From NCBI RefSeq assembly GCF_963676685.1, contig NC_092349.1, forward strand, positions 76,034,473-76,098,472: 64,000 bases of DNA. The letters run 5' to 3'. Shown here in pieces: positions 9,446-53,040 of this stretch (its first letter is position 1; each line of letters starts with the position of its first letter). Source of the DNA: Mytilus edulis (taxonomy: Eukaryota). The position numbers and the translations under genes are program-made. The notes under the pieces are model-generated. The model was not told where the DNA came from, did no database searches, and saw only the letters and a list, made by a program, of their open reading frames with translations.

Positions 9446-9464
9446 GGTATTTAACTTTGTAGGA

Positions 9465-18299: not shown

Positions 18300-18410
18300 T
18301 TAGTCATTCAAATGTGACGTCATTTTTGTGCTGTTTCAAAATTTCAAATATGACGTAATTTTTGTGCCTTTTCACCACTTCGTATGTGACGTCACTTGTT
18401 TCACCTATTG
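18300..18410. promoter_or_regulatory. Three ~36-bp direct repeats each carrying a CRE-like palindrome (TGACGTCA, TGACGTAA, TGACGTCA); duplicate at 30578-30688
   Basis: aaatgtgacgtcatttttgtgctgttt / aaatatgacgtaatttttgtgcctttt / cgtatgtgacgtcacttgtttcacc. TGACGTCA is the canonical CREB/ATF site, so the regulatory reading is inference only. Confidence 0.35.
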
Positions 18411-18533
18411 CGTTGAGGCCTTGACTAAGTCGGGTGTGTCTATTTTTTGTGTTGGTCTTTGTAATGTATCAGGGTTTTGTTTTCTGTAATTAGTTAAAAC
18501 TTCAGTTTAATAATGTATATCTTTTATATTCAT

Positions 18534-21678: not shown

Positions 21679-21723
21679 CAAGTATTTATAAAAACGTAAG
21701 GATTCTGTTTTACTGTGAGACAT
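21679..21723 (-). other. Displaced first 15 codons of cGLR pseudogene, copy B
   Basis: Identical to 9401-9445 at offset +12278; cat (ATG on minus) at 21721-21723. Confidence 0.6.
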
Positions 21724-24700: not shown

Positions 24701-27700
24701 CGGCAATCAAATGACATCTACATTATTTGGTCTTGAGTGAAGAGTTGTCTCACCGGCAATCAAACCTCATCTACATTCTTTGGTCTAGAGTGGAGAGTTG
24801 TCTCACCGGCAATCAAATGACTTGTACATTATTTGGTCTTGAGTGGAGAGTTGTCTCACCGGCAATCAAATGATATCTACATTATATGGTCTTGAGTGGA
24901 GAGTTGTCTCACTGGCAATCAAACGACATCTACATCATTTGGTCTTTAGTGGAGAGTTGTCTCACTGGCAATCAAACCACATCTACATTATTTTGTTTTG
25001 AGTGTAGAGTTGTCTCATTGGCAATCAAACCACATCTACATTATTTCGTCTATGGTGGTGAGTTATCTCATTGGCAAACATACATCATCAACATCATTTG
25101 GTATACCGTTATGTAATATATGTGAAACAAATGCCAACATTTATATCAATTGTCATAACAACAAATTCCTTCCTATTTTCAATGATTGTGACATCACTGA
25201 CTAAGCTGTTCTTATATGAACGTAGCATGTACAATAGGTGAAACATGTGAAGCAGGATCATCTAACCCTAATCTGTATAAAAGAGGGACGGAAGATATCA
25301 GAGGGACAGCCATACTCATTAATCGAAAATAAACTGACAACGCCATGGCTTAAAATGAAAAAGACAAACAGACAAACAATAGTACAGAAGACACAACATA
25401 GAAAAACTAAAGAATAAGCAACACGAACCCCACCAAAAACTAGGGATGATCTCAGGTGCTCCGGAAGGGTATCCTGCTCCACACGTGGCACCCGTCGTGT
25501 TGCTCGTGTTATAACAAATCCGGTATATAGTCTAATTCGGTAGGTCACATTTATGGAAGGGAAGGGGATTGTAGTTACGACGTAAGGAACATATCCTATA
25601 TCATCTGTAAAACGGTTATTCTCTAACGGTCAACCAATTCGTGATGGCCTGATGATTGTATAAATCATCCATATTTTAATGAGCTTCAGGTAGGTCAGTC
25701 GTTTGTTTTCTACGTAGTTTTTTGCTAACATGTTCATGTTTTTACGCTTTGACATTGTTAGTTTTTCTTCTAGTTATGATATTTTTAAAATGTCCTTTTG
25801 GTATATTTTACCTCTTTTTATACCAGAGCTGACGAATAGTTGCCTACATCTCCATCATTTGGACTTTGTGAATATTAGCTTATTGACAATCATATCACAA
25901 CTCCTATTTTTTTATGTAAATAGTTGGGTTTTTTTTTATAATAAACAGTATGTTGTTTCTTAATTCTTCTAGACAGTTTTATGCATTTTAATAAAATGGT
26001 GGAACTGGTTTTAGAATATTGCTATCTTAGCTGGTTTCCAGATGTCGGTAGTATATTTTGGCCGACACGGTGTATCTACTTTTCATTGCATGTGCTGTCT
26101 TTGGTTTTTCTTGTTCAAATTAGTGGAACTCCTGTTTGTAGCTAAACTATGCAGATTTTTACAGGACTAACAGTAAAACAATTTTAAGAATACTGAAACG
26201 TTACTCTATCAGGATATGAAATTTCAAGTTTGTGACAAGCAAAGATAAAAATCTGAGATACTTATTTTTTAAAGAAACCCCTCAACACATTTTAGGCCCA
26301 ATACCGTGAATTCATTAATATCCGTTAGATACTAATTTTCGTAGATTTTGTGGGTATGTGGGAACCATGAATTTAAATGTTCAACGAATTACAAATTTCC
26401 TAGAGGAAGGTATGCAGACTTTGCCAAAAGCACGAAGTAAGATATACACGAATATGCAAGTTTTCCTCAATCCACGAAAATAAATGAATCCACAGTAGCA
26501 ATTTGATTCAGAAACACGAATGAATAGTAATAAAAGATATTGACTGTTTTAATTATAAATTTTTGTCAGATATTGGGAATCCTTCTGTTTATCCATGTAG
26601 AACCATAAAAAAAATTGCGCCTACTATCCCCTACTTTTCTATTATAATTTTGCATTAGTTTAAAAAGGCAAATCTCAAAATATTAGAAAAATTCTTGTTA
26701 TTTTTTAGTGTTTGAAAAAAGTACTAGCTAATGTTAAATGTTTGACTTTATATCTTTACACTATGAATGACAGACCTTCCATGTTGATTATTTTAGAGAT
26801 ATACTTGCATATAATTCCTTTGTATATCAAAATGTATATCAAAGTGCCATCTATTGATTATTGTGGAAAATTTTATTTATCAAATTGAAGTTTTTGATAA
26901 GAATAATGAAAGTGTTTTGTCAGTATCATATGTGAATCCTTTTTTGTTCAAGATCTGTATTGATATTAAAGTTGATTCCCACACTTTTGTTAAATGCTCA
27001 TATTCCAATTCTTGCATTATGTAATTGAGATTACAATTACAGTGTAAAGGACAGCTACCATAATTTTCAAACAATTATACTGAAAGGTGTAAGTATTAAT
27101 TGGATGTAACTCTACCCAAATACAGTTATATTGATATATCATGACAGCTGATTATTATATTGGTATTCAGGTCAAGAATGTGTGTATTTGATCTGTTACA
27201 CATCTAACTAGTACTAAATGCACAAAATCTTGACATCAATAGTAGTAATATTCGTTTCATAATCATTTGATATAAGCTATTTTAAATTATTGTCTCTTTA
27301 AGTTACAGTTATGGGTAATTTGGTTGAAGCCATACACACAATTGCATAACTCTTACATGAGCGTTTTTTGCAAAGAAATATTTTTTTTATTCCCATTATA
27401 TTGCTTTTTAAAAATAAGTAATTAAAAATTATCTCAACGTTAGGTATTTGTGCATGTTTATATGAATACAGGAAATGTATTTTTCCTTAATGAATAATAA
27501 ACATCAATTTGAATAAAAGATAGTTATTAATTTTTTTGTGTTGACAAATTGTTCTTGGAATTATTAAGCCAATTATTATTGATGGTATATGAAAATATGG
27601 TACACATTTGATGATTTCTCTTAACACTCTTGTCAAATTGATTGATTTTCAAATGTTTCTTAAAAATTATGAAAAAATCTTATAGTGTCTTCAGTTGAAA

Positions 27701-30700
27701 TACCAAAATAATTGCATCAATAATGCAAAATTCTCCATCGTTTGGCAATAGAATAGAATTTGTGCAGTGAGATTATGGAAATAAAATAACAAAGAAAAAT
27801 TGAAAGTATGGTCAGAAAATAATTGCAGACTACTGAAATGGCTTAATCTTAACATCCATGATGCTTTAATTTTGTTGTTTGTATACTATCAATTTTATAT
27901 AACAGTCTTTTAAAAAGCATGATATTTTGAAACAGAGTAGCAACATTTTTACTTGAGTTAATATGTCTGCTATCTATATTTTGTACTATCATTAACTTCT
28001 CTGAAACACACTCGAGACTACTATATTACAGTAGTCTCAAAATAAATCTGCTTTTACTCACTTATTTAGTAGTTAAGTTATTAACTAACTACAGGCAAAG
28101 GGAAAATGCTATGAAGTAAAATGATTTATCGACTCTAGAATTATACAACAATGTTCATAATTATTTACTCATAATTGTATAGTGTGTGTGCAGTTACATG
28201 TTTTATTGACCCTAACACTATTTAATAAGAATGTAGTTATTCATTGTAAAACAGAATAGATATGAAACAACAATTCAGGAAAGAGGAAGTATGAAAAGGT
28301 TACTTTGTTGGCCCTTCCAAACGACAAATCTAGATGTATTAAATATTAAGCCAATGAGATTTACCTCAACAATACTTTTTTAAGATTTTCAGTTAATAAT
28401 TTGAAAATGAAGAGATATATGTAGATAAGATGTATTTGACTAAGATGTTAATAGATGTAAAATATGTTTCTGGGTAGGACCTTGACTCATAAATATTGTT
28501 TTTCCAAAAAGGAGTGTAAAATAGTGAAAATATCCTTTCAGCATTACAAATTCCTATCTTATAGTGCATAATCATTATCAATATAATTAACAAATGGCTC
28601 TCATCATACTTCCTCCTTTTTAGATGTGATTAAAGTTTTAAAAAAATCAACAGTTTATTGAATGATAAATTCATAAAATATTCCATTCATTTATTTTTAA
28701 CTTCTATCCAATGAATGTATTAAATTGATCAATTCGGAAGTTAAATTAAACAAATATAAGCTACAAGTTGAGTTTTAAGCAGCATTATCAACTTTACCAA
28801 TACCAATTTTGGTGCTATAGATACATATATTTATTGCCTCATCCGTACTAGTAATGCTTATGACAAAAATAGTTCAAAATTCAATACTTAACATGCTTAA
28901 TGGATAAATTCATAATCCTCGTAGCAAAATTACTATCTAAGGCTAAGGTTATTCATTATATTAATATTGCAGTTTTAGTGATTACAATGTAATTTAATAG
29001 ACTCATTCAAGGCTAGAATTAACAGAAATTAATAGGTTTTGTGTGATATGATAGCCTATTTTAATGTCTGCTTAATAACGTTGTTTTAACCGGACAGAAT
29101 TTTAAAGTCAAATGAAACTTCAAATGTAAAACAAAAAGTTGTATGTGTTTTACATACATGTACTTGAATAGTTTAACTATAAAATAATGTACAAGAACGT
29201 TAATGTGAAGGAGAATCCTTTATATCATCAAAATCTTCATATTGTTCATTTAATATCTATATATTGTAGAAAAAAATAAGAACTCAAACATTTAACTTCA
29301 TAATGTTTGGTCTACAATTACAAAAGTTTCCCATTAGTTCTTCATGTTATATTTATTTTTTGAAGTGTTGAGTTCCTGATAGAGTACGTATAAATTGTGT
29401 AACGGCCTTCTAATCAAAACAAAAAAAACATATATCCATGTGCTTTGAATGTTTGTTTCTTTATACAATGTGACTTTACCTATTTGAATATTAAAGACAA
29501 CAAATGAAATGATCATCACTTAATAGTAATAAAGAGACCTAATAAGAAACCATTTTGGCCAGAAATTATGTAATTAAAAGTCAGAGCTCGTAAATATCAT
29601 ATATTATCATACATCAAGGTAGAAAAATATAAATTTGACAAAAATGAATATGGAGATTTTTTTTCTGCAAATATATAAATTACAAATGCAAAATAACGGC
29701 ACACTGCTTTTAAATTATTGTTTTCCTGTACACTAATTTACCGATGTGTTCCCGTATGCAGTGAACTTATCAACTATGAAAGATCTCGTTTGAGGTTCGG
29801 AAACTGCACAGCGCAAGTGCGAAGGAAACCCTTGACGAAGGAACGTAAACAGACGTGCAGTGGAAATTCAATAGTAATACCTGATTTTAAAGAACAAATT
29901 AAATACGCAAAATCATTTAACAACTTTACAGGAAAAGTTTAATTAACTTTCGGAATAAAAATAATATATAAATGAAATATCATGGTTCTAAATTGTACTT
30001 AATGTGTACGTGCTCCACATGCTCTCTGCGTTGATTGTTTATCAATGTCGTTATCTGGTAAACTTTGGAAACATACTCGAAAGTTAATAAGCTTAAGACC
30101 AACAACCACTGAAATAAATATTGTTTGTCAATAATACGTTATAAATTAGTAATAAAGGTAAAACTTTGCATATATGACTTAGCTAACTAATTCGCATTAC
30201 TATAAGACGTGTTACGGTACTTATCTATCCCAAATTCATGTATTCAGTTTGATGTTATATTTGTAATTCATAATATCGGATCTTGTCAAATGTGTTGACG
30301 TTTTACTATCATATTCATGTGTTATGGTAAGGAAAATTAATCACCGCCTTCATTTATTAGATTTGATTTTGTTTAACGTAATCTGTACGATGTTTTACGT
30401 TTGAAGTTAGATTCAAAACAAACCGGACATAGCTATATAATATAGTTAATTGCTACTTCTGTTTTCTATTAATAAGTATTGCAATGTGCATTGTTATTAA
30501 ATGTAATATCAGTATTTAGTTCAAAATATAATCTTAAATCAATTCTAATTCTATCTTACTTTTGAGATATAGTTTTAGTCATTCAAATGTGACGTCATTT
30601 TTGTGCTGTTTCAAAATTTCAAATATGACGTAATTTTTGTGCCTTTTCACCACTTCGTATGTGACGTCACTTGTTTCACCTATTGCGTTGAGGCCTTGAC

Positions 30701-31893
30701 TAAGTCGGGTGTGTCTATTTTTTGTGTTGGTCTTTGTAATGTATCAGGGTTTTGTTTTCTGTAATTAGTTAAAACTTCAGTTTAATAATGTATATCTTTT
30801 ATATTCATTTGATAAAATTTACTGTTTGCAATAGCATAAATTGTTCTAAATAATAAGGATGTTCTTATCCCAAGCAGAAAACCCTATCTGTATTTGGCAC
30901 AGCCTTTTTGAACTTATGATCCTCAGTGCTGTACAATTTTGTACTTTTTTTTACTTTCGAACTTTTATATCTGGGCGTCACTGGTGAGTCTTGTGTGGAC
31001 GAGTCGCGTTTCTGACGTATTGAATTTTAAACCTGATGCCTTTTGTTAGCTATTATTCATGTGTTTCTAATATGTCTAATATGTTCTATTTATTTGTATT
31101 GTAATCCTGTAATATTATGTTGTCATTTTAATGTTATATTTAACATTGGCATTAAAGTGCGAGGTTTGGCATGCCACAAAACCAGGTTCAACCCACCATT
31201 TCTTTCTTTAAAAATGTCCTGTACCAAATCAGGAATATGGCCATTGTTATATTAAAGTTCGTTTCTGTGTGTTACATTTTAACGTTGTGTTAGCGTTGTG
31301 TCGTTTATTTTCTCTTATATTTGAGTGTGAATTCACATTACTATAAGACGTGTCACGGTACTTTTCTATCCCAAATTCATGTATTTGGTTTTGATGTTAT
31401 ATTTGTTATTCTCGTCGGATTTTGTCTAATGCTTAGTCCGTTTCTGTGTGTGTTACATTTTAATGTTGTGTCGTTGTTCTCCTCTTATATTTAATGCGTT
31501 TCCCTCAGTTTTAGTTTGTTATCCCGATTTTGTATTTTGCCTATAGATTTAAGAGTTTTGAACAGCGGTATACTACTGTTGCCTTTATTTAACTACATAT
31601 GCATGCATTGGTTCAAAAATTTCGATAACAATAATATTACAAAAAAACCTTTGTGATTTAAAGTTATTAGTACAATAAATATTACTAAAAAGCAAAGCAA
31701 GCTTGTATGACAATAGCAGTGTGATCTTATTGGCTATTGTTATCAAAAGAATGAAAATATTGAGTTACAAACTGCAGCTGTGCTATTAGCGCAGTTAATT
31801 TATATTTCGAGACAATGTATGGTTATTTTATGCATACTAAATTCTATAAACCATACTGTTAAAGGGCACAATCGTTTGGTCATAACTCAGGCC

Positions 31894-33807
31894 TCATCGG
31901 AGTTGAAGCAGTCTAAAAGCAGCACTTGTATGGTTGTCGTCATCGATCTGCGCAGCAATGTGAAAATATCTTCTTGCTAAATCTCTCTCACCTAACATCT
32001 GAAAAGCTATCCCCAGTAAAAGAAAATTATTTGCTTTAATATATATATTTTCCCCTGGTTGGTTGTGTTCTCTTGCTGTTTCTGATAACTTGTTTATACA
32101 ATACCGACTTGATTTAAAGTTCTGGAGATGGTAACAACACAGGAAACGGAGGAAATGTGCAAATGGTAGGGAACTCATTGGTATTATTAAATCAAAGTTA
32201 TGATGAGACTTCAGTTCCAATGGAATGACTGAATTAAATCGCATCTTGGAAAATGAAATATTTGGAGATGCAATATTCTTACATAGTGATATTAGCTTCA
32301 GTATCACTGTCTGTTTCAGTGTTATCTTTGACAAAGATGATTCGTCTGTACATTTTGACAAAGTGTAATTTATAATATCTATTGATGTTAGATAATTTTT
32401 GTGACCATAGAAGAAACAAGCTAATTTCAGCCATCCCGATACTGCATCTGAATGTACACCAACCAACAACTGGCTCAGGTCACGTTTGTAGAATTTATAT
32501 TGCTGTTTATTGTTTGGATTATTTATATGAGGTAATGCAAAAGGTAATGTTTGACATACACTGGCAAATGACAGTTTAAAGATACATCTTGATAATTCAG
32601 TTTTACAATGATACAGCAAAGGGTTCAGTATGCCATAAGTGTTTGTAAACAATAACTCTCTCTTTTCAATCATTGTTTGTATTAATGAAGTTATTTCACA
32701 CACTGATGTTGTATTCTTACATGGAAATCTTCTGTAATCATGTAAACTCGGAGATGATAAGAAAATCTTAATTCCTTTTTGGAATGATTTGGTAAGGAAG
32801 TTGATTAATGAGTTCCTTTGTTTATTGTTAAACTTTAAATAGAAAAAGTTGTTATTAGGAATGAAATAATGTAATAACGTTGAATACTCTATGCAGTATA
32901 ATAATCTTTTTAAACAGGCCATATAACAAGGAATGATATTGTCTGGTCTCCAGACTGATGTTTCATTTTCTTCTGACATCCAAAACATCAGGGTCTTTAA
33001 AAAGTATGAACAAAATAAATCTTTTAGGTCTTCATTTCCATTTACTATTTCTTTCATTAATATTTTTAACAAAGCATAGCACAATAGCTGGGTATGACTA
33101 AAAGAATATATCAGCATCTTTTCTGCTACAGAAAAGGATATTCGCCACTGAAGATTCTCATTTATAGATCCCTTGTTGCCAATTGGAACAAATAAGGTAC
33201 CACATGACGTTATTTTGGAAATGAGTTCAGGCGAAGGCCATATTAAACGTGATCTTGAGATCCATGGTTGTGCCTGCGATACCCACTGATCGCATTTAAG
33301 GCATTGAGCAATATCAATTGTACCAGCATTGTCTGCTAAGCATGGACCATGAATATTAAAATCTGAGAGAAAGCCTGGCAGTAATTTCAACCTTTGTGAT
33401 TTGTAAAGCTCACTTGATAGTAGAATTTTTCCTCTGTGCTCTTGTAGATTTTGTTTTACAATATTTGGTAAAGTATTAACATTGGTATATAATTGTAAAT
33501 GTGTAAAACCTGGTTGTGTGTCTTCTGTGTCCATGACTAGCACTATCCTCCAACAATCCTTTACAGCATCTTTCTCTGATTCGTAAAGTGCATACATAAG
33601 TTCAATTCGCATTATATCAAGATCGCTACCTTTCAGATCCAGTCCTTCTCCCTTACTTCCACTAGTTATTTCAGGAAAATGTATTGCGGTACCTCTGAAG
33701 TCACTTCTTATGTATGACAATCGTCGAGCTTTTACCATTTTCTCTGATCCAATCTTTTGACACAAATATTTATAAAAATGTAAGGATTCTGTTGTACTGT
33801 GAGACAT
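31894..33807 (-). CDS. cGAS-like receptor (cGLR, Mab-21-family nucleotidyltransferase), 637 aa, apparently single exon, with ~250-aa C-terminal extension of unknown function
   Basis: Uninterrupted 1914-nt ORF. NTase signature ITSGSKGEGLDLKGSDLDIM (G-S, then D-h-D) and downstream VLVMDTED. Mab-21/cGAS helical-domain signatures WRISFSVAEK (cf. cGAS WRLSFSHIEK), CSYFLKTLMFWM (cf. SSYHVKTAFFHV) and LHYFIPNNNFFY (cf. YFIPEFNLF). Family call from remembered cGAS/Mab-21 motifs, not a search. Confidence 0.75.
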   Translation of the reverse strand: MSHSTTESLHFYKYLCQKIGSEKMVKARRLSYIRSDFRGTAIHFPEITSGSKGEGLDLKGSDLDIMRIELMYALYESEKDAVKDCWRIVLVMDTEDTQPGFTHLQLYTNVNTLPNIVKQNLQEHRGKILLSSELYKSQRLKLLPGFLSDFNIHGPCLADNAGTIDIAQCLKCDQWVSQAQPWISRSRLIWPSPELISKITSCGTLFVPIGNKGSINENLQWRISFSVAEKMLIYSFSHTQLLCYALLKILMKEIVNGNEDLKDLFCSYFLKTLMFWMSEENETSVWRPDNIIPCYMACLKRLLYCIEYSTLLHYFIPNNNFFYLKFNNKQRNSLINFLTKSFQKGIKIFLSSPSLHDYRRFPCKNTTSVCEITSLIQTMIEKRELLFTNTYGILNPLLYHCKTELSRCIFKLSFASVCQTLPFALPHINNPNNKQQYKFYKRDLSQLLVGVHSDAVSGWLKLACFFYGHKNYLTSIDIINYTLSKCTDESSLSKITLKQTVILKLISLCKNIASPNISFSKMRFNSVIPLELKSHHNFDLIIPMSSLPFAHFLRFLCCYHLQNFKSSRYCINKLSETAREHNQPGENIYIKANNFLLLGIAFQMLGERDLARRYFHIAAQIDDDNHTSAAFRLLQLR

Positions 33808-35510: not shown

Positions 35511-38054
35511 TGTGTCGACCAAGATTTCAGTCAAGATGCGTTTGAACCAACTTTGTATAGTGCTTTTTGCTGAAATAATCACTTTTCATTTTATACTTTT
35601 TTACTGATGTTTTTGAATAAATTCAATGATTACTGTTGCATATATAAATTAATCTTTAAAAATAAAAATATGACACTTACTCGAAACGAATATCTTTTTT
35701 TTCTGATTGGCGCATGCGTATGAGGCAAACATTTCGAATTTATTTTGCGCCTATTTGATTACCACATCAAGTTAACAGTTGCTCTCAGCAGTGCAAAGTA
35801 AGTATATTTTCATATATTGTTTGATTTAATAATAGTTATATGAAAACTTAATGTATGCAATACTGTGGCTGTAATTTTATGAGTATAGTGATCATTTAAG
35901 CAGTTCAGATATAATGTATAATTATACACGTAGTTCCAGATAAAACGCACACAATGTGTTTAAATCTCGGAGGAACAACAAGGTTGACCTTAAGATATAT
36001 GTGTTCATTTATTGGTTGAGGCAACTTATTATGTAAAGACTTGAAAAAAGGGGAGTACGTGTGTTTATGAACAATGATTTGGTAATTTACAGCGTTGAAA
36101 AGCGTATGGCAAAGAATTATATTATTGCAGATATTGGTTTATAATATATCTTGGAACTTTGGATAGAATTAAAGAATTTATTCGTCTGGCAAATAAGAGT
36201 AATCAGTTATTGAAGTTACATATGTGATCGCGAACTAGTTCTTTTACATGTTTTATGTGTTGATATGATTATAAAAGTCAACGATTTACAACACATGGCA
36301 TTCCTGACCTTGCAACACATTTAAAACAAACAAACCCTTTTCTCTGGGTCAGAATAGATGTCACTCAAAGCATGTATTCCTAGGATGCAATATGGCAGAA
36401 ATTAAGAAACACGTGTGACCATAACAAATTAATACACAATGACCTGACCAATTTTGAAGTGGTTTATATGAAAACGTCTAAAAAGATGCGTTATCAATTA
36501 ACCATAGTGTCATTATTACAGCACAAAACATTCAAGGTAATAAAGATATTTCTATAGTTTAAATTCACTTTTAATATCTAAGCTTAATCCATATACATGC
36601 AAATCACCCCGTATAACCCCGATACAAATGAATCCGGACGTTTACGCGTTCGAAGCGATAATCAGGACAACATTTGGTATGACAACAATTTCGAATGCCT
36701 CTCTAGCACTTATTTGAGTATATGTAAATATGTCAATGTGCATGTTAGTTTATTTATTCAATTATACAGTTGTTGTAAGTTTTAGATATTGCATAGAACG
36801 TTTGATAAAACTGCTAGATGCAAAACGCACAGACATGGTGCAATTTCATACGTTTTATGAGGTAAACAATGCTGAATATCTTTTCGTGCATACACCTTTG
36901 CATATTAATACCTTAAGCAATAATAAATAACTATACGTTGAATTACTACGTGTCTTCAAATGTTCCCTAGAACTTAGAATAAACGCAATATCATACTAAA
37001 TAAATTTTCTCTTACTGTATTGTTCGTTCAATCAAATGTGTCGCGTTCGTTGTGCGTTTTTTTTTTTAAATAATCACTATACAGTTCGTTGACAAAAACC
37101 GTCACAAATCACTTTCTTGTCAAGGTATTCGAGATGGTGTCGGCGACCCTTTTTCTGTATTTTATTGTAAATGTTTATCTTAATCAAAGTAGTTTAACTT
37201 AAAATATCTGTCATCCAAAGCCAAAATTGCAATATTTAACCAGCGTGACATCTGATAGGAATGCTTCTATTGAAAATTGGGACTTTCAACGTTATTCCAG
37301 ATGAAATGAACAGTTAATAAATATATTCCAGTAGAAATTTTATAGTTGATTTTCAGCACTTTTTATAGTTGGTTTTGGTGTTGTTTTTGGGGTTGGACTA
37401 ACTCGACTTGGTTTAGCTAGAGGTTGGATGAAACTTTGTATATTTAGATAACCAGTACTTTTTATGCTGTTCGTGTTTAGGACTCGTCTGGATCATACCA
37501 CAAGGGTTTCAGAAATAGTACCTTTACCTTTAAATAAAAACACAAAGTTCTGTTCAGCTGGAATTTACAGATCTGTTTTAATTATTATAATACAATACAA
37601 AACATCAAATTAAAATACAAATTAAAAATAGTGATAATTAACAAATACAATAAAGTTGTAAATAAATCAAATGACATTGAATAATTTAAGTTTTCCGTTA
37701 AATTGATAAAGTTAAACGAGTACATTGATTCTATTTTCGGATAACAGTTTAAAAATTTACTTTTAACCACAGATTCTTTCTCAATTAAATTGATTAAGTC
37801 GTTACCAAAAATGTATAAAGTTTACTAACCTTTAAATAAAAACACAAAGTTCTGTTCAGCTGGAATTTACAGATAGTATTCCAACTGAACAAACTTGTTT
37901 ATATAGTCCCGGAGAAATTATCCCATTATTCAAATAAAGTCATAAATGTCGGTACTTAACTTTTGCAACTTTGAAGTGACCGATGAATTACCCTTATTAA
38001 AAGTCTTAACTCCCCCAATACACTTAAAAGTAACATGTGTCATGGTGTTTATGT

Positions 38055-39038
38055 CGGCGTTTTGCATTTGCGCCGATCTGCATTTCATTTGCGCCGATTT
38101 TTTCTTTCATTTGCGCCGATTTTTCTTTTCATTTGCGCCGATTTTTTTACAGGTAAATAACAGGTAAATTACAGGTGAAATGATATAAGAGGATGTGGTA
38201 TGAGAGCCAATGAGACACCTCTCCATCCCAGTAATGTTATTTTCATTTATCATTAAAGACTTCTTCCGTTAGCCAGTTGTACATGTGTTATGAATTGTCA
38301 ATCATAACATGTATACAACTGTTGTCTCCTGCTTAAAATCAAGAAGTAAAAAACCTAAGATAAAAGAACTTTGTTGATACTAAAATGACGAATTAAAAAT
38401 ATATGTAGCAGCATTTAAATCCATAAAAACGGAATACATTCAAATCATAAATCTGTTCTTGCCGAGTATGTATAGGCAACACATCTAATGTATCCCTTTC
38501 TTATGATTTCGTCTCTATTTCTTCTATATTTGGCAAAATTGTCGATGACGAAGGTCTCTTTTTTTTTGTCTGGCATACGTACTTGTGGGGACATTTCTAG
38601 AGTTTGCATTTTCTCACAAGGAAGCTATTAAACCAAGAGTTCCAAATGGTGAAGTTGAAATAATCCCTTCTTTAATTTATGGACGCCATCACGAATTGGT
38701 TGACCGTTATGGAATGTGTACTTGTACGTTGTCTAAGAATGTATGACATTTGCCATCAGAAGGAGCGTCAGACAATGTCAAACGTGAAGCAGTCATCGAT
38801 TTCATTTAGGGAAAGGAACCGTAACCCGAAACATTGGGATAGCCATTTACCATGCAATTGCAATGTCACTTGATTTGTCTGTATACTCTGTGCTCAGCCA
38901 ATGTAAAAGTATGAACTTACCTGTAACTTACCTGTAAATCCAATTAAGAAAAAATATAAAATCGGCGCAAATGAAAAAATGAAATCGGCGCAAATGAAAG
39001 AATGAAAATTTTCAAAATCGGCGCAAATGTCATACGCC
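38055..39038. mobile_element. Non-autonomous DNA transposon (MITE-like, 984 bp). About 110-bp complex TIRs with subterminal catttgcgccgat repeats (x4 left, x3 right inverted) and acaggtaa/ttacctgt. 8-bp TSD GTTTATGT (38047-38054 and 39039-39046)
   Basis: Paralogous uninterrupted site at 45023-45030 (ggtgtttatgtaacatggtcattc) shows the exact empty target. 8-bp TSD is consistent with hAT or P superfamilies. Internal ORF 38679-38873 is not transposase-like. Confidence 0.75.
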
Positions 39039-40029
39039 CGTTTATGTAACATGGTCATTCAGTTATCTGAATGTAGTGTTTATTCACATCATAAACCCCA
39101 CTGGCTAAATTTGTACATGGTCAATAAAATTTTATACATGGTCATTTATCTGAACAAGTGCAACTAAACTATGATTACATTATACTTCAAACTTTGAAGT
39201 ATTTTTAATGAAAATCTCTCTATAATAATACTCCCCCACTCCATTTAATTTTGGAGCTCCAAAATTTTAGATAAAAAATCAACAACACAAATAATTGAGA
39301 TTATTATGTAGGAATAAAAAAATGAAGCATATAAAAGAAAACTATATGTTTTATTCTTAAATTTTTTTTAAAGATTGCGCTTCGAAACATATGGAATAAG
39401 TCTTATTTCTTTTGATGTTATATATATATATATATGAGATGACTGATTGCCTTTTAATTGTTCTTATTCGTGACTTTATATGACCATTTACATGTAGTAT
39501 TTTATTTGCAGCTTATTCTTTTTTTTATATAAAAAAATAAAAACCCAATTTTAGTCTTAAATATTTTTCATTTACAAAAATATCTTTATTCTTTATCATA
39601 AGCATGATAAGAGAGTTGGTGTTTTAATCAATATTATTATTATCGTTTCTGTATTACTTTTGTAGTAAGCCCTCTTTTCTTGGTAGTCTGCTCGAACTCC
39701 AAACATACCCGAGTCATTTACTCTCTCTTTGGAGTATGCTCATTTTCCTGGGTATTTTGCTCCGACTGCAGAACTACTGCAAGACATAAGCTCATTTTAT
39801 ATTTTATCACTTTAGTCAAATATGCTGTCTGTTTTACAATGGTTAGTTTACTAAAACATCTGATTACAGTTAAGATTTTGCATTACATGGATAAGGATTT
39901 GCCTATGCTAGAATAATAGTATGTTTGCTACAATCAAGGTTTTACATGAAGACTAGCTAGGTCAACATATTTAACAATAATTTAATTAGTGAATCAGCAA
40001 AATTAAATTCTTATGATTAAACTAACATT

Positions 40030-40678
40030 CAATTATTGCACACATTTTGTATAACTTTATGTTTTTAAAATATTCACAGAATAATTGTAAGTCTGAATGG
40101 GTTATGTTTATAAAAAATATTCTCGATACATGTGGTTATAGTAATATCTGGTTAGCACAAACTGGCTTTAGCACAAAATGGCTAAGTAATAGTTTAAAAC
40201 AGAAACTATTTGATCAATTTCAACAGAACTGGCGTTCAGATATATGTAATTCGTCAAAAGGTTATCATATCGATTATATAAGGATAAGTTTGAATTCGAA
40301 AAATATTTAGATATATTACCAGATAGAGATAGGGTCACATTTTGTAGATTTAGAACTGGTAATCATAGATTACCAATTGAAACTGGAAGATGGATAGGTT
40401 TAGATAGAGAAATGAGATATTGTAATGTATGTCAATGTCAAGAATTAGGTGATGAATTTCACTTTCTTTTGAATTGTAGATCCTTAGACGACTCAAGAAA
40501 ACTGTTTTTGGATAACTGTTATTGTAACAGAGTAAATATAATTAAATTTTGTAAATTATTCCAAACAACACATAGAAATAAGTTAAAAAATATATGCAAA
40601 TGTATAAAGGTTATAAATTCAGTAGCAGGTCTTCCTGGTTAGCCTTTGTCTATTTGTTTTTCTATTATAATAACTTTT

Positions 40679-40744
<66 letters not shown>

Positions 40745-40881
40745 AATAGTAATTGTAACATTCCTATCTTGTCATGTGCACACTTTATTTTGTATACTAT
40801 GTATTATTATTTCATTCTTTGTACCAATGTGTATACAGTGGTTTTAAAGAATAAAATTGTCTTGTCTTGTCTTGTCTTGGA
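40030..40881 (+). mobile_element. Degenerate 3' fragment of a LINE (ORF2 C-terminus plus 3' UTR), containing (TA)26 and ending in (GTCTT)4
   Basis: ORF 40047-40310 NNCKSEWVMFIKNILDTCGYSNIWLAQ..FDQFQQNW parallels the C-terminus of the minus-strand LINE (YSFKWLSSLKQILDDTGFSFVWNAQ..VDQFGQSL). CNVCQCQELGDEFHFLLNC parallels CCHCDSNTIGDEYHYFFVC. Multiple stops. Confidence 0.7.
40687..40738. repeat. (TA)26 microsatellite within the LINE 3' UTR remnant
   Basis: tatatatatatata... read directly. Confidence 0.95.
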
Positions 40882-41867
40882 ACCATAAAACACATGTTTT
40901 ACTCAACAGTTTTATCGTAATCGCTTTAGAACCATTAAACACTTTAACAATCAACCAAGTTTATGATTATTTTTTTCATGTGCATTTCTCTTAAAATTAC
41001 TATTCATCTATCATGTCTATTAATCTATATTTGTTCCTTATAGGACACTGTACCTTATCTCGACATTTTCTTATGTAGACGTTTTATTCTACATAATATC
41101 AAGTTTTTGAGTCCTTAAACAACCAACCTCTTCTTATAGATTTTTTTTTAATGAACTTTTATCGTTTAAAGGTTAAAGTTCATGGCATTATTTAAAAGTT
41201 CTCATATAAACAAGGATAGTTCTTTCTTTCCTTTTTACGTTTAATGAATTTGAACCGCCTGAACTTAAGCTTCTAAGACATATTACATTTTAATATAGTT
41301 ACTCTAAGTTACTTTCTGGGGTTTTTTTTTTTGCTATTAAGTAAACTAACAATATTTTCTGGTCATCTCATATTTCTTTTTTTTTTATTATCTTTTACAT
41401 CAATTATCATTATTTAGTATCTTATTTGCCATTGACAATTTTCAAAATTAAATGATTTTTTATCAAGACTTTTAATGAAGCTGTTTCAGCACTTATATAT
41501 CATAATTCATACTAGTATTCCGTTTATTTCAATTTAGAGATTCCTTTCAAAATTACCTTTATCAATGACTCAATTTTCAATTTAGCCTTATTCCTACATA
41601 TATTTTTAAACACACTTAAATTTATCTTCTATCTTTTTTTTACCTAATCGCTTATTTATCTACCTTAATTTTAACTTTAACTTTTTTTTTTTGATATTCA
41701 AAATATTTCTTATATTAATGTTAACCTACTTGCTATTTATAACTACAATATTTTTACCATAGAACATACTATACATACACATATCGTGAAACAACAGTTA
41801 AATTTAAAATCCATTGTTTATAATACAAGTCCGAAATTATGTTCCGTCCTGGGCCATCCTTCTCCAA

Positions 41868-44800
41868 GACAAGACAAGACAAGACAATTTATTACAACTT
41901 AGGCACACGTATGGTGCTACAAGAGGATAACAATTATACATTAAAAATTACATACATATAAATACATTTACAAGAAAGTCACACAATAGATTAATAATTG
42001 ATATCATACAATAAAACTGAAATATATTTGGTTGATTTGTTTGCAAAATTCTTAATTGCAACGTGGTTAGAAATTATTGTAACATGCTATGAATTATGAA
42101 AATATTTTTTCAATATGTCTTAGAAACATGCACACTTTTGTTAGCACTGGCACGTTACAGTGTGATAATAGACCAATAAATTTCAATTGGGAAGGATTTT
42201 TTATGTAATATGTAGGTATATACCTTTCTCTTAAAGACATAATTTGTTTATTGGAACATACAAAAAAATAATGATATTCGTCACCAATGGTATTTGAATC
42301 GCAGTGACAGCATATACGATTTTCTCTTGGTGTATTTTTCCATCGACCAACTTCTATAGGGATTTTGATGTTTGAACATCTAAATTTACTGTAGATGTAT
42401 CGATCTGCCACTTTAAGATTGAGTAAATATGGCTCTAAACAAAACATTGTTTTGTATGAAGCATAAAACACACCTCTAGATGAGTTTGTCATATCAGCAG
42501 ATAGGCTCTGTCCGAATTGGTCAACCAATCTCTGTTTTATTTCTTTTTTAATATCCGAACTTTTGATATCACCCTGTGCATTCCAGACAAAAGAAAATCC
42601 TGTATCATCTAAAATTTGTTTCAAGGAAGATAACCATTTAAATGAGTATTGGCCTGAGTTATGTAAGTTATACATTAACTGATACAAGATCCCAGATAAT
42701 TTGTTACTACTGCTTTGCACTAGCCTTGACCAAAAGCATAGTAATTTAGTTTTGATATTAATTTTTAATGGAAATCTGCCAGTTTCCCCATAGACCATAT
42801 AGTTTGGTGTTGTTGATCTAACATTCAGGACTCTTTTTAGGAAACTCAAGTGCACCTTTTCAATCATGTCAACATTTTCATGACCCCAGATTTCCGACCC
42901 ATAAAGCAAAATTGGAGCGACCATACAATCAAATAGTCGAAACTGCAGATCTGAAGGGATGTTTACATTTCTTAACTTATAGTATAATGCATACAGTGCT
43001 TTTTGTGATTGTTCAACAAGTTTTTTCTTTGATAAATTAAAATTACAATTGTATCTTTAATATTAATAATCCCAGGTAATTATAACTGTCGGTGAGCTGT
43101 AACTCCTCGCCCCTTAGCATGAATCTCATATTTCTTTTACGCTTCGCCTTCTCAAACACCATTACTTTTGTCTTATCAATGTTTACATTTAGTTTCCAGT
43201 CAGTACAGTATTCATCAAACTTGTTTAACATTATTTGTAAATCGTTAGCTGATTCTGCCAATAATATTGTATCATCAGCATATAATAGCAAGAAAATTCG
43301 AATATAAATGCCTAGTTCATTTAGACAGTATTCATTTACCTTTTCTAAACCTGTTATATCATGCTGAATAAAATAGCTTTCAAGATCATTAAGGAAAAGA
43401 GAAAAAAGAAAGGGTGATAAGTTTTCACCTTGCCTAACTCCAACTTCGCACGGAAAGAAATTTGAACAACTCGAGTTATGTCTTACACATGATTTGACAT
43501 TAGAATAGAGGTTATAAATAGAGTTAAATATTTTGCCGGTTATGTTACTAGAAATAAGCTTTTGCCACAGTCCTACCCTCCATACAGTATCAAAGGCTTT
43601 CTTGAAATCTACAAATGTACAGAATAAACGTTTTCCAGAGAGTAAATAAAGTTGAATCAAACAGTATAAACTAAATATATTATCAAGTGTGGAGTACCCT
43701 TTCCTAAATCCCGCTTGGCATTTTGAGAGTTATTCTACTTCTTGGGCAAACTTGTCTAGTCTGTTATTTAGTATAGCTGTAAATACTTTACCTAAACATG
43801 ATACCAGTGTAATACCTCGATACGAGTCTGGATCGTTAAGAGCTCCCTTATTCTTATAAATGGAATTAATTATTCCCATTGACCAGATTTCGGGTATAAT
43901 TCCTGTGTCGAATACAAAATTGAACAATTTTACATGAAGAGGTAAACATACAGACATGGAATTTTTAATAAACTCGTTTCTTATTCCATCATATCCAGCG
44001 GCTTTGTTATTTTTTAATTTTTTAATGACTTTGATAATTTCTTCCTCGGTAATAGGCCCATTTAAAATTTCGTCGAACTCATTTAACTCTAGGTTAGGTA
44101 ATTGAAACTCTTCCAACTCATTTGCCACAGTTTCGTTAAGCTTCTTAAAATGTGCATACATTACTTCTAGTGAAATTGGACTTTCCTTTTTTTGTTTCGG
44201 AGAGAATTTATTTAAAACTTTCCAAAATTCTTTTGGGTTATTTGTTGATATATTACGAAGCTCTTTTTCTGTCTTCAACTGATAGTTTTGAAAACATTTG
44301 TTTATTTCTTTTTTGTATTCCTTACTTGCTCTTTTCAGTGAATTCTTATTATTTATACTTTTCTGTTTATTATATTTATATTTAGCCGAGTGAAATTGTT
44401 TTCTTTTCAGCTTACATGATTTATTAAACCATGGTTTATTCCTATTTTTGGCCCCATGATTTTTTTTAATCGGATTTTTATTAGCAAAGGTTCCAAAAGA
44501 ATCCTTAGCTGCCTGCGAGTAAAAATTTGTTAAACTAGTTATAACTCTGTTTATATCATGATTACCTTTTTTTGAGGATTCTATTTCATTACACAAATCA
44601 AGAACTTTTACCTCGTTCTTTCTTATATTTTCGATGAACTTGTGTTTATCCTTTTCAATCCATTTTATTGTCTTCCTTTTATGTGAACTTTTTTCTTTTT
44701 CTATAGTACTCATTTCTCCGTTCTCCGTTCTCCTGTCTCTGTTCTCCTTTCATCATTCTTTGTTATACTTTCTCCGTTCTCCATTCTCCTTTTTTTCGCC

Positions 44801-44961: not shown

Positions 44962-45230
44962 TCCAGCACTTATTAAAAGTCTTAACTCCCCCAATACACT
45001 TAAAAGTAACATGTGTCATGGTGTTTATGTAACATGGTCATTCAGTTATCTGAATGTAGTGTTTATTCACATCATAAACCCCACTGGCTAAATGTGTACA
45101 TGGTCAATAAAATTTTATACATGGTCATTTATCTGGACAAGTGCAACTAAACTATGATTACATTATACTTCAAACTTTGAAGTATTTTTAATGAAAATCT
45201 CTCTATAATAGAAATAAAGTTTCAAAAAGT
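44962..45230. repeat. ~265-bp dispersed repeat (ttattaaaagtcttaactcccccaatacac...ctctataata), empty-site paralog of the repeat that hosts the MITE (37995-38054 plus 39039-39230)
   Basis: Direct sequence match across both flanks of the MITE. Abuts the 5'-truncated end of the minus-strand LINE at ~44960. Confidence 0.7.
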
Positions 45231-48039
45231 ATAGTACAGTCAATAAAACTGTATTGACTTACTTTTCACAATTTGAGACTCTTCCAAATGCCGATATATC
45301 GATGTTGGTCCTATTTCGACTAGACGAAAGCAGACATAGGAACTCGTTGAACTTATTTTGCCGAATGACATAGATGGCATTCCAACTGCTTTATTTTTTT
45401 TATTTATTTTTTTTATATATATAAAGCTTTGTAGATGTGGTGTGATGGCCAGTGAGACAACTTTCCACCAAAGTTTAAATGAAGTGGGTGTATAAAGCAA
45501 TTATTATAGTCCAATGTACAACATTTAACAATACCATAAAGTCGACTAAAAAAGGCCCCGATATAAACAAAAAATTAAAACGATAAAACTAAGTAACGGT
45601 AATATTTTTATAACTTATGAATTATGTATTAAAGAAGAAGACAAAATGACAGATCTATATAACCAACGTACTACAGGCTCCTGACGTTGGACCGACACAA
45701 ACAAATTGCGGCGGGATTAAACACGTGTGACCCCAACCCTCTCCTTAACTTGGGACACTGGTTTAACAGCACAACATGATAAAAAAAACCTGTACAGTTG
45801 CAATTGCTCAAAATGTCGGTACAAGGCAGAAAAACCATATACAATATCGACAAAAGAAGTAATTTTAGTAACTGATAGTTATTTCAAAGCGAATTACAAC
45901 TAAGAGGTAAATCATGTATCTATAGTATTAATCAGTATATATCCAACGCTTTTAGGTAAAGACGACCCATGGACTTGTGCAATGCCAAATATAAACAGTA
46001 TCGAGAGGATGTACAGTATTATGAGTTCTCATAAGTGTGCATATATTGTAATAATGTTAAGTGGTTAACCGGTACAGCACAACTTTCTATATTGTAGCCA
46101 AATTTTTTTAATTCATGAAATAATTTGGTAAAGGATGACTGGGAAATATACTATTAGATATGGTCACTTTGGTTTTTATCCGACCGGCAGTAAAACCTGA
46201 CCGAAGTTGGCCACCCGTTTAGTTGTGTGGGATGTAAAATTACGCAGTCACGTTAAGTCCGAATGGGAATATAAGATCCAATGTCTTGTGTAAAGAGAGT
46301 ACTACGCTAACTACACTGTACGAACCCTGCAAATACTTTATGAGAGGTCCATAAATGACCTGTTGAAAGGCAACATTTGTGTCCTTATTCAATATACCTC
46401 ATTTTATCCAGTGGCAGTCCAAACTTCCCTAACGTAATTCCGGAGGGCCACCTTTCAGGACCTACATGTAGTATGTGTTGCTACTTTGTGCTCATCCTGA
46501 ACATGCATGACATATTTGCAAATAGAACGTTAAGCAACTAACAATCAGCCATTACGTACGCGTGTAATAAACTAAAAAAAGGGTCCAGAAATTGTTCAGT
46601 ACCAACTGCGAAACGTTCCATTTTTTATTGATAACTATTAAGACATGAAAGAAGAAACACAGCAAATGTCTAAAGTTAGGTTGATGATTGATTCTTTGCT
46701 CATCTGCATAATTTACCCATGACGCCAAGGGTAACTGGGGAATATAAATATGGTCCCTTTCAGGTCTTCTCCGAAATAAGTAAAAATTTGAATGAAATGC
46801 ATATGGGTGGGTTTAGACTTTAAGGTGCTTATAATAACCAGAATGACCAATCATTTAGATTTTGGCACCACAGTAGAAAGACTGTAATATTCGAGGAAAT
46901 TAAGCATAATCTTTATACCTTAAAAATTGAACAAACAAAAAACATAATTGAAAAAGCAAACCAGTTATAGTTAACAATTATATCTTCATCTTTATATCTT
47001 CACATAAAAGTAGCTGTATTACTATTGATGGCTATCAGTTACATGTTTATTGTATAAACATATTCTTTAGCTTTAATGTAACTCTATTGTAATCTATGAC
47101 CCCTAGGACCCGCTTCTGAGATTCAGTCCAAAAGGCTTAACCTATAATCCATTAATTGTTTTTGATTGCCGTCTATATAAAAAAATGTGGTATTGAAACA
47201 ACTTTTTCGCAAGAGACCAAACGAAACAAAAATGAACAACTATAGCTCACCGTACCGCCTTCAACAATGAACAAAGCCCATACCGCATAGTCAGCTATAA
47301 AACACACCGAAATGACAAATGTAAAACAATTCATACGAGAAAACTACCGGCCCAATTTATGCACAAAACAGTGAACATAAAAATATATATAACCACTGAA
47401 TTACACGCTCCTGGCTTTAGACTGGCACATACAGAATATGGCGGGATTACACATGTTAGCGGGCACCCAACCCACCACCTAACCGTACATTAAATGTCGT
47501 ATGGTAAAAACTTTCAAAAATGCTATCAAATTAGAAATCGGACGTGTGTATCTGTATGCTTAGCCATATTTGCATCTGTCGAGTTATTGTATTTTCCTAC
47601 CTTTGATAACTATTCCTACCAATTTACACTTTCGTATACATAAGGATTTTTTTACATGTACAAATTTCCTCCAAGAGTGTTTCGACAATCATAACGGATA
47701 TTATGGGTTGCTGTCTGCATGTTATGGTGGGAAATTATTATTTTCATACATGCATATTATTGGTTATAATCATACCAAAGCAAAATTTAATACATGCAAA
47801 ATTCATTGACAAACACAATATTGTGTCAACGAAGCGTACAGTATAAAAAAGTGTAACGACAACGAAGCGTACACAACATGAAAATAAAGACACTTTAAAA
47901 CGTGTATTTTTGTTTGTATCTAGATACAACATAAACAAACGATCTTTATAAGTTTGTTAATTATACTATGAAATTTTCCAAAATGTATGTTTTAAAAACT
48001 ATGAGGTACGAGAAACATTAAACTTGCTGCCCTAGAATT

Positions 48040-52519: not shown

Positions 52520-53040
52520 TATAGAGTTGTCTCGATGGCCATCATACCCCAGCTTCATCATTTGGTCTTTGACAGAGAGTTGTCTCATTGGCCATTTTAC
52601 CACATCTACATAATTTGGTCTCTGATGGAGAGTTTTCTTAAAGGCAATCATACAACATCTGCATCATTTGATCTCTGCATGGTTGAGAGTTGTCTCCTTA
52701 ACAATCAAACCACATCTACATTATTTGGTCTCTGATGGAGATTCGTTTCATTTACAATCATGCCAGATTTTTGGTGGAGCTAGAGATGTCTCATTGGTCA
52801 TTTTACCACATCTACATAATTTGGTCTCTGATGAAGAGTTATCTCATTGACAATCATACGACATCTACCATGTCTACATCATTTGGTCTCTGGTAGAGAG
52901 TTGTCGCCTTGACCATCATACCACATCTACATCAGTTGGTTTCTGATGGGGAGTTGTCTCTTTATCAATTATACCACATTATTTTATCTCTGTTGTAGAG
53001 TGGTCCCATTGGCAAGCATACCACATCTTCATTATTTTTA
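52520..53040. repeat. Second, more diverged array of the same ~57-bp satellite family (about 9 units)
   Basis: Units such as catctacataatttggtctctgatggagagttttcttaaaggcaatcatacaa and atctacattatttggtctctgatggag. Single dispersed monomer-like copies in reverse orientation at ~38185-38230, ~45425-45475 and ~56375-56425. Confidence 0.75.

Follow-up and report, generated by a model that had tools for sequence, protein, structure and literature searches.

We interpret the segment at 38055-39039 of this stretch of Mytilus edulis DNA as a non-autonomous class II (cut-and-paste) transposon with terminal inverted repeats (TIRs), 985 bp long and of the foldback or composite-TIR type, and we put the probability of this reading at about 85%. 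The whole stretch analyzed, referred to here as the window, is 64 kb long and contains one copy of the element. The segment combines the features that define a class II TIR transposon, namely TIRs, a target site duplication (TSD) together with an empty site, an interior without transposase coding capacity, and the same termini in different contexts, with the tip and TIR of a second copy (L002) lying in an unrelated flank. The insertion is recent, with a perfect TSD, host copies that differ at 2 of 242 positions, and a high CpG observed/expected ratio in the element (1.08 vs 0.68 for the window). The coordinates of all features are collected in Table 1.

Table 1. Features of the element, its insertion site and the paralogous empty site, in window coordinates
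Feature	Position	Strand	Details
Left portion of interrupted 242-bp host repeat	37993..38046	+	ends at TSD
Left 8-bp TSD	38047..38054	+	GTTTATGT
Left tip	38055..38060	+	CGGCGT
Left array of four perfect 13-mers	38065..38142	+	CATTTGCGCCGAT; starts 38065, 38086, 38108, 38130
Left TIR inner tier, three 11-bp tandem repeats	38148..38181	+	(T/A)ACAGGT(A/G)AAT
Non-coding internal region	38182..38913	.	
Common mussel repeat core, copy inside element	38186-38228		GCCAATGAGACA(A/C)CTCTCCA
Palindrome inside element	38274-38321		48 bp
Internal block common to L002 and L005 copies	38333-38587		
Internal block common only to L005	about 38590-38720		seen in L005
Right TIR inner tier, two 11-bp repeats	38914..38937	-	TACAGGTAAGT
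Right array of three perfect 13-mers	38961..39029	-	CATTTGCGCCGAT; at 38961, 38984, 39017
Right tip	39034..39039	-	GGGCGT, read inward
Right copy of 8-bp TSD	39040..39047	+	GTTTATGT
Right portion of interrupted host repeat	39048..39227	+	
Uninterrupted host-repeat paralogue (empty site)	44969..45210	+	one GTTTATGT at 45023-45030

Insertion boundaries and the empty paralogous site

The left flank with its TSD copy (37993-38054) is 100% identical to 44969-45030, and the right TSD copy with its flank (39040-39227) is 98.9% identical to 45023-45210. When the flanks are rejoined (37993-38054 plus 39048-39227), the resulting 242 bp align to the paralogue at 44969-45210 without a gap and with 2 mismatches, and the octamer GTTTATGT, single in the empty site, is doubled in the filled one. 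The base 5' of the left TSD copy is T and the last base of the element is C; the base 3' of the right copy is A and the first base of the element is C. These mismatching bases beside both copies prevent the boundaries from sliding, so the duplication is exactly 8 bp, a length that rests on one insertion since both ends were seen in one copy only. Repair of an 8-bp staggered cut in the target produced the GTTTATGT duplication, and the 242-bp repeat had already duplicated when the element entered one of its copies.

An earlier note on this DNA had described a transposition caught with filled and empty sites in the same window, and the agreement of the rejoined flanks with the paralogue bears this out; the perfect 8-bp TSD that it reported is likewise found as exact octamers at 38047-38054 and 39040-39047. 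Several of its measurements need adjustment. The start of the locus that it placed at 38047-39046 is correct and the end is one base short, the right TSD copy ending at 39047, and the element between the TSD copies is 985 bp long rather than 984 bp. The host repeat is indeed interrupted, with a measured length of 242 bp in place of about 265 bp, and the paralogue is uninterrupted at exactly the octamer named (45023-45030), with a span of 44969-45210 instead of 44962-45230.

An RT element sits between the two copies of the host repeat. A reading of the 242-bp direct repeats as LTRs around this intervening element was rejected, since they have neither TG...CA ends nor a TSD, and since the RT element is of the 5'-truncated non-LTR type and lies on the opposite strand. 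Rfam and tRNA scans of 37.3-45.6 kb for a tRNA-derived SINE in the host repeat returned nothing.

Ends, interior and further copies of the family

The two ends of the element are composite: in each, an inverted repeat of about 125 bp opens with a 6-bp tip and continues with 13-mers and then 11-mers. There are four 13-mers in the left end and three in the right, and the TACAGGTAART 11-mers number 3 and 2, respectively. The 13-mers are spaced at 21, 22, and 22 bp in the left array and at 23 and 33 bp in the right, with linkers of 8-20 bp between them. Exactly seven perfect copies of CATTTGCGCCGAT occur in the 64 kb, all of them at the element ends and in inverted orientation, as expected from the earlier description of long complex TIRs with four left-hand subterminal repeats and three inverted on the right. 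A search that tolerates up to 2 mismatches would be expected to yield 0.49 chance matches to the 13-mer, and none of 100 shuffled sequences contained as many as 7. A 23-nt end pattern is also confined to the element's two ends, whose inverted alignment over about 125 bp contains 95 matches, 10 mismatches, and several indels. The left tip and the CGCCG core of the first 13-mer are inverted complements of each other, which produces a small terminal palindrome, and a terminal hairpin appears in the predicted DNA fold of the element, which folds back on itself with a minimum free energy of -152 kcal/mol (z = -6.55 vs shuffles). The CATTTGCGCCGAT arrays are presumed to be transposase binding sites.

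The element encodes no protein. Its longest wholly internal ORF is 64 aa and a Pfam search with its internal ORFs gave no match, in agreement with the earlier statement that there is no transposase ORF inside and that the element is non-autonomous. The only protein homologue of the element's ORFs is the translated ORF of another copy. A 58-aa frame (YGRHHELVDRYG) searched against 5.8 billion proteins found nothing, exact-sequence look-ups of 10 ORFs from the window and 9 from L002 and L005 found none in the protein collection, and the translations of all TIR frames, joined into a single bait for ORFs called across other copies, yielded 2833 word candidates, none of them significant. There are no transposase domains in the window's open frames of at least 85 aa. 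A conserved 54-aa ORF was rejected as a transposase relic: it carries frameshifting indels between copies (of 1 nt and 6 nt), the DNA is similarly conserved past the stop codon, and a hand count on the alignments of the copies gave about 8 non-synonymous vs 4 synonymous changes.

The element belongs to a multi-copy family in which the ends are common and the middles differ. Two further copies, L002 and L005, were found, both in marine metagenome contigs, and of the three copies seen altogether the 985-bp element is the only complete one. Counted from the tip, L002 agrees with the element at every position for 87 nt and at 95% identity for about 120 nt, and it also matches about 250 internal bp at 83% identity, with a different centre. 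Its similarity ends exactly at the GGGCGT tip and the flank beyond is unrelated, which supports mobility. L005 matches the internal part of the element at 95.6% identity over about 550 bp.

L002 was one of four loci (L001-L004) returned by a scan of metagenomes for a paired-13-mer DNA pattern, and the only related one; the other three were rejected as unrelated sequences in which the 13-mer is shared twice by chance. The same pattern had 0 matches in bacterial and archaeal genomes and 0 in viral contigs. The window encodes a 637-aa Mab-21 protein, to which database entry P0001 is identical. Neither the element nor the host repeat was present in 72 kb of sequence from four mytilid-like ENA contigs obtained via paralogous Mab-21 proteins. 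The 13-mer, the tips, and the 11-mer array were all without a match in the supplementary transposable element libraries of PMC10294476, and a literature search for the 13-mer CATTTGCGCCGAT and the mussel core repeat GCCAATGAGACA found no paper.

Superfamily and proposed mechanism

The earlier note took the 8-bp TSD to point to a hAT- or P-like superfamily. The TSD is compatible with both, but the restriction to these two is too narrow: MULE and Merlin elements likewise make 8-bp TSDs, and the tips of the element are unlike those of hAT or P. Reported TSDs are 8-11 bp in MULEs (8/9 in Muta1 and 8 in Spectre) and 8-9 bp in Merlin (PMC5499845, PMC6446971, PMC8101967). A library of autonomous bivalve elements holds 133 hAT, 39 MULE, and 3 Merlin families and no P families, and every mollusc examined had both MULEs and hATs (PMC10294476). 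Foldback-type elements have been reported among MULEs and likewise in the P superfamily (PMC5499845).

In our analysis, a Mutator-like foldback element of the Muta1/Tm1/Phantom type appears to fit the architecture and the 8-bp TSD best, an assignment that we make tentatively and at a little under even odds. The TSD lies at the low end of the MULE range, and the TIRs are of the long MULE kind, exceeding 100 bp, with a terminal motif, tandem subterminal repeats, and unequal ends. This likeness to foldback MULE ends is structural only, with no sequence similarity. Against this best explanation, 9-bp TSDs are commoner than 8-bp ones among MULEs, and the two tips are non-complementary at position 1 (C vs G). 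Since no autonomous partner or transposase was found, binding, mobilization in trans, and superfamily are things that we infer.

A hAT-superfamily MITE, in which a BED-finger hAT transposase would bind short subterminal repeats and make the 8-bp TSD, seems to us doubtful. hAT TIRs reportedly begin with YARNG (CAG or TAG), a rule attributed to Yuan and Wessler in 2011, but the tips here are CGGCGT and GGGCGT. hAT TIRs are also short, 5-27 bp, as in CAGGGGTAGGC of Mar (PMC3517528), whereas the TIRs here are composite and about 125 bp long. The canonical hAT TSD is 8 bp, as it is here (PMC3517528), and hAT, with its 133 curated families, is the commonest bivalve superfamily that makes TSDs of this length (PMC10294476). 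The octamer GTTTATGT also fits the Buster-family target nnnTAnnn, the Ac-family consensus being nTnnnnAn (bioRxiv 10.1101/2022.09.16.508221), but a single TSD matches a 2-position pattern by chance 1 time in 16, and the 8 bases beside the L002 tip (AAAAAAAG) do not fit. Subterminal repeats are a feature of hAT ends too, where transposition requires them, but these are 4-6 bp long, scattered, and in both orientations (bioRxiv 10.1101/2022.09.16.508221), whereas the 13-mers here are tandem, in one orientation, and in regular phase.

We consider it quite unlikely that the element is a non-autonomous member of the P superfamily, either BuT5-like or a Galileo-type foldback, with a THAP transposase that would bind the 13-mers. 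The P TIR is 31 bp (CATGATG...), and the tips here are unlike it. An 8-bp TSD falls within the 7-9 bp of P-superfamily elements; the P element itself makes 8-bp TSDs and BuT5, a MITE of about 1 kb derived from a divergent P element, makes TSDs of 8/9 bp, but those of Galileo and 1360 are 7 bp (PMC3698922). Galileo TIRs are long and internally repetitive, with several THAP binding sites (PMC3688188), and against a P origin stands the count of zero P families among the curated autonomous bivalve elements (PMC10294476). Marginally less likely is a non-autonomous Merlin element, mobilized by an IS1595-like DDE transposase. In Merlin elements the TSDs are 8-9 bp, the TIRs span 24-462 bp, and the terminal 5'-GG is conserved (PMC8101967), and the right tip and the L002 tip, both GGGCGT, begin with GG, but the left tip begins with CG. 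Three Merlin families have been curated from bivalves, where the superfamily is rare (PMC10294476), and tandem subterminal repeat arrays are not among its described hallmarks.

For a non-autonomous foldback transposon of the kind that we favor, a DDE transposase encoded elsewhere in the genome would recognize each element end. It may bind the terminal palindrome, where the tip CGGCG faces the CGCCG of the first 13-mer, together with the phased 13-mer array, in which the spacing of about 22 bp (two helical turns) would place all of the 13-mers on one face of the DNA. At each end several protomers would then act: they would bring the two ends together, cut the element out, and integrate it. The TACAGGTAART repeats of the inner tier could either be a second set of binding sites or be left over from the 5' leader of the partner. 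These 11-mers read as the metazoan 5' splice-site consensus, perfect and in tandem (CAG/GTAAGT and CAG/GTAAAT), and run inward from each end. If they were functional splice donors, the element would supply a donor in either orientation and could rewire mussel transcripts rather than be a passive MITE; that it is an exon-trapping or introner-like element of this sort, or that its partner comes from an undescribed bivalve-specific transposase lineage, strikes us as very improbable.

Barely credible is the reading that takes the long form as ancestral and derives the "empty" paralogue from it, through deletion between the 8-bp direct repeats or through precise excision: precise excision of Muta1 with one TSD copy is frequent in yeast (PMC5499845), so an empty site alone gives no direction to the event, but a chance deletion would need to coincide exactly with a segment that has inverted repeats at its borders, identical ends occur in the unrelated L002 flank and show the segment to be mobile, and precise excision is itself transposase activity and is thus compatible with the transposon reading.

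Significance and closest known systems

The locus gives base-exact boundaries, a TSD length, and the end architecture for one recently active transposon family of Mytilus edulis, and may be usable as a presence/absence marker. Bivalve genomes are rich in unclassified MITEs, and those of PMC10294476 were left unclassified; given this abundance, the locus is a good starting point for curating the family and searching for its autonomous partner. The general understanding of transposition is unchanged by this element. If the partner were a Muta1-like MULE, a mollusc example would join the few animal foldback MULEs with repeat-driven transposase binding.

Muta1 of Aedes aegypti has a 145-bp TIR made up of a 10-bp palindromic terminal motif (GGGTCTACCC) and nine 12-bp tandem repeats, with TSDs of 8/9 bp, and its subterminal repeats raise transposase binding, cleavage, and excision; a natural non-autonomous derivative, Muta1NA1, has 3 and 7 repeats at its ends (PMC5499845). 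The mussel element resembles Muta1 in its 8-bp TSD (8 or 9 bp in Muta1) and in having a TIR of more than 100 bp that starts with a G-rich, partly palindromic terminal motif and continues with tandem 12-13-bp subterminal repeats, and it resembles Muta1NA1 in its short non-coding interior and unequal repeat numbers (4/3, vs 3/7 in Muta1NA1). The sequences are not similar, the tip being (C/G)GGCGT in the mussel and GGGTCTACCC in Muta1. In contrast to Muta1, the mussel element has inter-repeat linkers of 8-20 bp instead of 3-4 bp, fewer repeats, and a second inner tier of 11-bp repeats.

Tm1 of Meloidogyne, a Mutator/Foldback family, has 13-15-bp tandem TIR repeats and asymmetric tips (PMC3169594). 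It shares with the mussel element composite TIRs, variable numbers of tandem repeats, ends of different length, extreme tips that are imperfectly inverted, and a family that includes MITE-like non-coding members with differing interiors, but its TSDs are 9 bp, its tips are 7-bp asymmetric motifs, and its sequences are unrelated (PMC3169594).

At 985 bp the element lies at the upper edge of the MITE size range (BuT5, about 1 kb; Vege, 884 bp). BuT5 of Drosophila, likewise a MITE about 1 kb long, is similar in its 8/9-bp TSDs and has nothing but its ends in common with its master element, but it has 3-bp TIRs and 17-bp sub-TIRs without tandem arrays (PMC3698922). Galileo, of the P superfamily in Drosophila, is comparable in the repeats within its TIRs, which are THAP binding sites (PMC3688188), and differs in its 7-bp TSDs and kilobase-long TIRs (PMC3698922, PMC3688188). 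The hAT MITEs Mar and Vege of Drosophila (0.6-0.9 kb) match the mussel element in size, lack of coding capacity, and 8-bp TSD, whereas their TIRs are 11-12 bp long and begin with CAG, without the composite structure of about 125 bp or the 13-mer arrays (PMC3517528).

Filled and empty sites of one insertion

The earlier note had described a host repeat split by an element with an 8-bp target duplication (TSD) and an uninterrupted paralogue in the same window, and all of this is present in the sequence at 38047-39047. Coordinates and lengths are slightly corrected; the overall structure stands, and the segment between the two copies of the TSD GTTTATGT is 985 bp rather than 984 bp, with termini 5'-CGGCGT...ACGCCC-3'. 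Rejoined, the flanks form a 242-bp repeat that aligns without gaps and with 2 mismatches to the paralogue, in which GTTTATGT occurs only once. Since the bases adjoining both TSD copies differ from the terminal bases of the element, the boundaries cannot slide, and the duplication is exactly 8 bp, a length known from one insertion of a single complete copy. The element was inserted with an 8-bp staggered cut of its target. The finding is real and the inference of transposition is sound, with filled and empty sites in the window and the same tip in a different flank in a related copy (L002, below).

The insertion looks young because the two TSD copies are identical, divergence between the host repeat copies is 0.8%, CpG observed/expected is high (1.08 in the element versus 0.68 in the window), and all 14 CpGs within the seven 13-mers described below are intact. 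The host repeat has no TSD or TIR of its own and gave no tRNA or Rfam match; within it are ACATGGTCA repeats and a pair of short palindromes. A perfect 47-nt direct repeat with a spacing of 302 bp lies immediately upstream of the insertion.

Positions of the element, its target and neighbouring features
Feature	Position	Strand
Element	38055-39039	
TSD copies	38047-38054; 39040-39047	
Host repeat, split copy	37993-38054 + 39048-39227	
Host repeat, empty site	44969-45210	
GTTTATGT in empty site	45023-45030	
47-nt direct repeat	37526-37572; 37828-37874	
12.28-kb tandem units	6256-18533; 18534-30808	
Mab-21 / cGAS-like pseudogene, one per unit	5774-7609; 18502-19887	minus
RVT_1 reverse-transcriptase ORFs adjoining pseudogenes	7613-9223; 19891-21501	plus
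~53-bp tandem arrays	12369-12824; 24644-25099	
31-nt matches to interior	13343-13373; 25618-25648	
637-aa ORF	31894-33807	minus
Interior stretch with core	38186-38228	
(TA)n microsatellite, ~70 bp	40657-40758	
AATAAA + (TTGTC)4 tails	40841-40881; 41863-41898	plus; minus
Non-LTR retrotransposon fragment	42094-44713	minus
Other repeats with core GCCAATGAGACAACTCTCCA	45434-45474; 52909-53035; 56369-56411	

Composite ends and a noncoding interior

The inverted-repeat ends are composite. Across the 64-kb window there are seven copies of the 13-mer CATTTGCGCCGAT, each of them perfect; the left end has four on the plus strand and the right end three on the minus strand, placed and oriented as the subterminal repeats of the earlier note. 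Chance would give 0.49 matches when up to two mismatches are allowed, and seven were never reached in shuffles. At the left end the copies are spaced by 21, 22, and 22 bp, at the right end by 23 and 33 bp. Inside the 13-mers is an inner tier of 11-bp tandem repeats, TACAGGTAART (three left, two right). Aligned in inverted orientation, the ends match over ~125 bp (95 matches, 10 mismatches, and several indels), and as single-stranded DNA the element folds into a foldback (-152 kcal/mol, z = -6.55). Each end opens with a small palindrome, since the first 13-mer has a CGCCG core to which the CGGCG tip is the inverted complement; this palindrome is also seen as the terminal hairpin of the fold. 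Position 1 of the two tips is noncomplementary (C left, G right). One oddity stands out: in each TIR the 11-mers form an array of 5' splice-site consensus sequences, and there is a small chance that host transcripts receive splice sites from the family.

The element has no coding capacity, in agreement with its description as non-autonomous and free of a transposase ORF: the longest ORF wholly within it is 64 aa, and neither a Pfam match nor a homologue among 5.8 billion proteins was found for the internal ORFs. When a 54-aa minus-strand ORF was run through a full HMMER scan against 1.84 billion representative proteins, the one match was the 73-aa P0121, which is a translation of another element copy. 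We reject this ORF as coding because 1-nt and 6-nt indels fall inside it across three copies, DNA conservation runs beyond its stop codon, and differences are ~8 non-synonymous and 4 synonymous (hand count from alignments). Open frames of at least 85 aa in the window contain no transposase domain, and the autonomous partner is therefore not in the window.

One interior stretch, with the core GCCAATGAGACA(A/C)CTCTCCA, resembles other mussel repeats in the window, and the interior has a 31-nt match to two positions. The core GCCAATGAGACAACTCTCCA sits in the unit of the ~53-bp arrays and recurs in several otherwise unrelated repeats, this interior stretch included, and probably represents a repeat module widespread in bivalves.

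Relatives and surroundings

Metagenome contigs were scanned for two 13-mers 6-24 bp apart, yielding four loci, three unrelated and one (L002, 1174 bp, marine metagenome) a true relative. Inward from GGGCGT, the first 87 nt of L002 are identical to the right end of the element, with 95% identity over ~120 nt, and beyond this exactly conserved tip the flank bears no relation to the host repeat. Within L002, ~250 bp are 83% identical to 38333-38587 and the central segment is different. A 568-bp ENA contig found via P0121 (L005) is 95.6% identical to 38160-38720 and has the centre seen in the window. Because both share sequence with the element but the L002 centre differs, the family comprises several copies of at least two subtypes, with common ends and different middles, as is typical of non-autonomous DNA transposons. 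Among the unrelated loci, L003 shares the 13-mer by chance; at 1179-1270, the end of this GC-rich contig, (C/T)ATTTGCGCCGATTG is present in three to four iteron-like direct repeats set close together.

The window (27-37% G+C) contains Mab-21 genes and pseudogenes as well as several fragments of non-LTR retrotransposons that carry RVT_1 domains. Its tandem duplication is perfectly head-to-tail, at 99.67% identity. The intact 637-aa ORF encodes a Mab-21 / cGAS-like receptor for which NCBI has a Mytilus edulis protein of 100% identity; a protein search found no close orthologue in other Mytilus, where the closest relatives, also Mab-21 / cGAS-like, are only ~68% identical, which suggests a gene family that evolves fast or varies among species. 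The two AATAAA + (TTGTC)4 tails face each other 981 bp apart and look like oppositely oriented 3' ends from one family of non-LTR retrotransposons; the minus-strand tail belongs to the frameshifted fragment, which has an RVT_1 domain without a recognisable endonuclease domain and ends 255 bp from the empty site.

Superfamily and likely mode of transposition

The element represents an ordinary Mytilus family of non-autonomous DNA transposons, apparently undescribed. Assignment to "hAT or P" from the 8-bp TSD is one of several options and probably not the best, since MULEs (8-11 bp; Muta1 8/9 bp, Spectre 8 bp; PMC5499845, PMC6446971) and Merlin (8-9 bp, with terminal GG; PMC8101967) also make such duplications. 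Weighing bivalve frequencies against the fit of tips, TIR type, and TSD, we favour a MULE-like element, at a probability of roughly 0.45.

The TIRs of hAT elements start with CAG or TAG. A hAT origin is unlikely given the tips CGGCGT / GGGCGT and a TIR of ~125 bp against 5-27 bp in hAT, although hAT elements do make 8-bp TSDs (PMC3517528) and are the commonest in a curated library of autonomous bivalve elements (133 hAT, 39 MULE, 3 Merlin, and 0 P families; PMC10294476). Another or unknown superfamily takes the remainder of the weighting. The P element also makes an 8-bp TSD, and its MITE BuT5 one of 8/9 bp (PMC3698922), but P-type termini are not evident and the library holds no P family, which makes this superfamily improbable. 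Merlin is likewise improbable; its TSD length fits, and GG stands at one end only.

By analogy with comparable elements (Muta1, Galileo, and Hermes), a DDE transposase supplied in trans would bind the palindrome at each tip and the phased array of 13-mers, then pair the ends, excise the element, and integrate it. In Muta1, the terminal motif is needed for binding and end joining, and extra subterminal repeats raise binding, cleavage, and excision (PMC5499845); the Galileo THAP domain binds repeated sites within long TIRs (PMC3688188), and the Hermes BED domain binds subterminal repeats (bioRxiv 10.1101/2022.09.16.508221).

The closest described architecture is that of foldback-type MULEs, a likeness of structure without sequence similarity. 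In Muta1, a 10-bp terminal motif that is in part a palindrome, GGGTCTACCC, precedes nine 12-bp tandem repeats, and the ends described here are of like type; its natural non-autonomous derivative has 3 and 7 repeats, compared with 4 and 3 13-mers here. Tm1 (PMC3169594) resembles the mussel element in structure as well: its tandem repeats are 13-15 bp long, its ends are unequal and its tips imperfect, and it includes MITE-like members.
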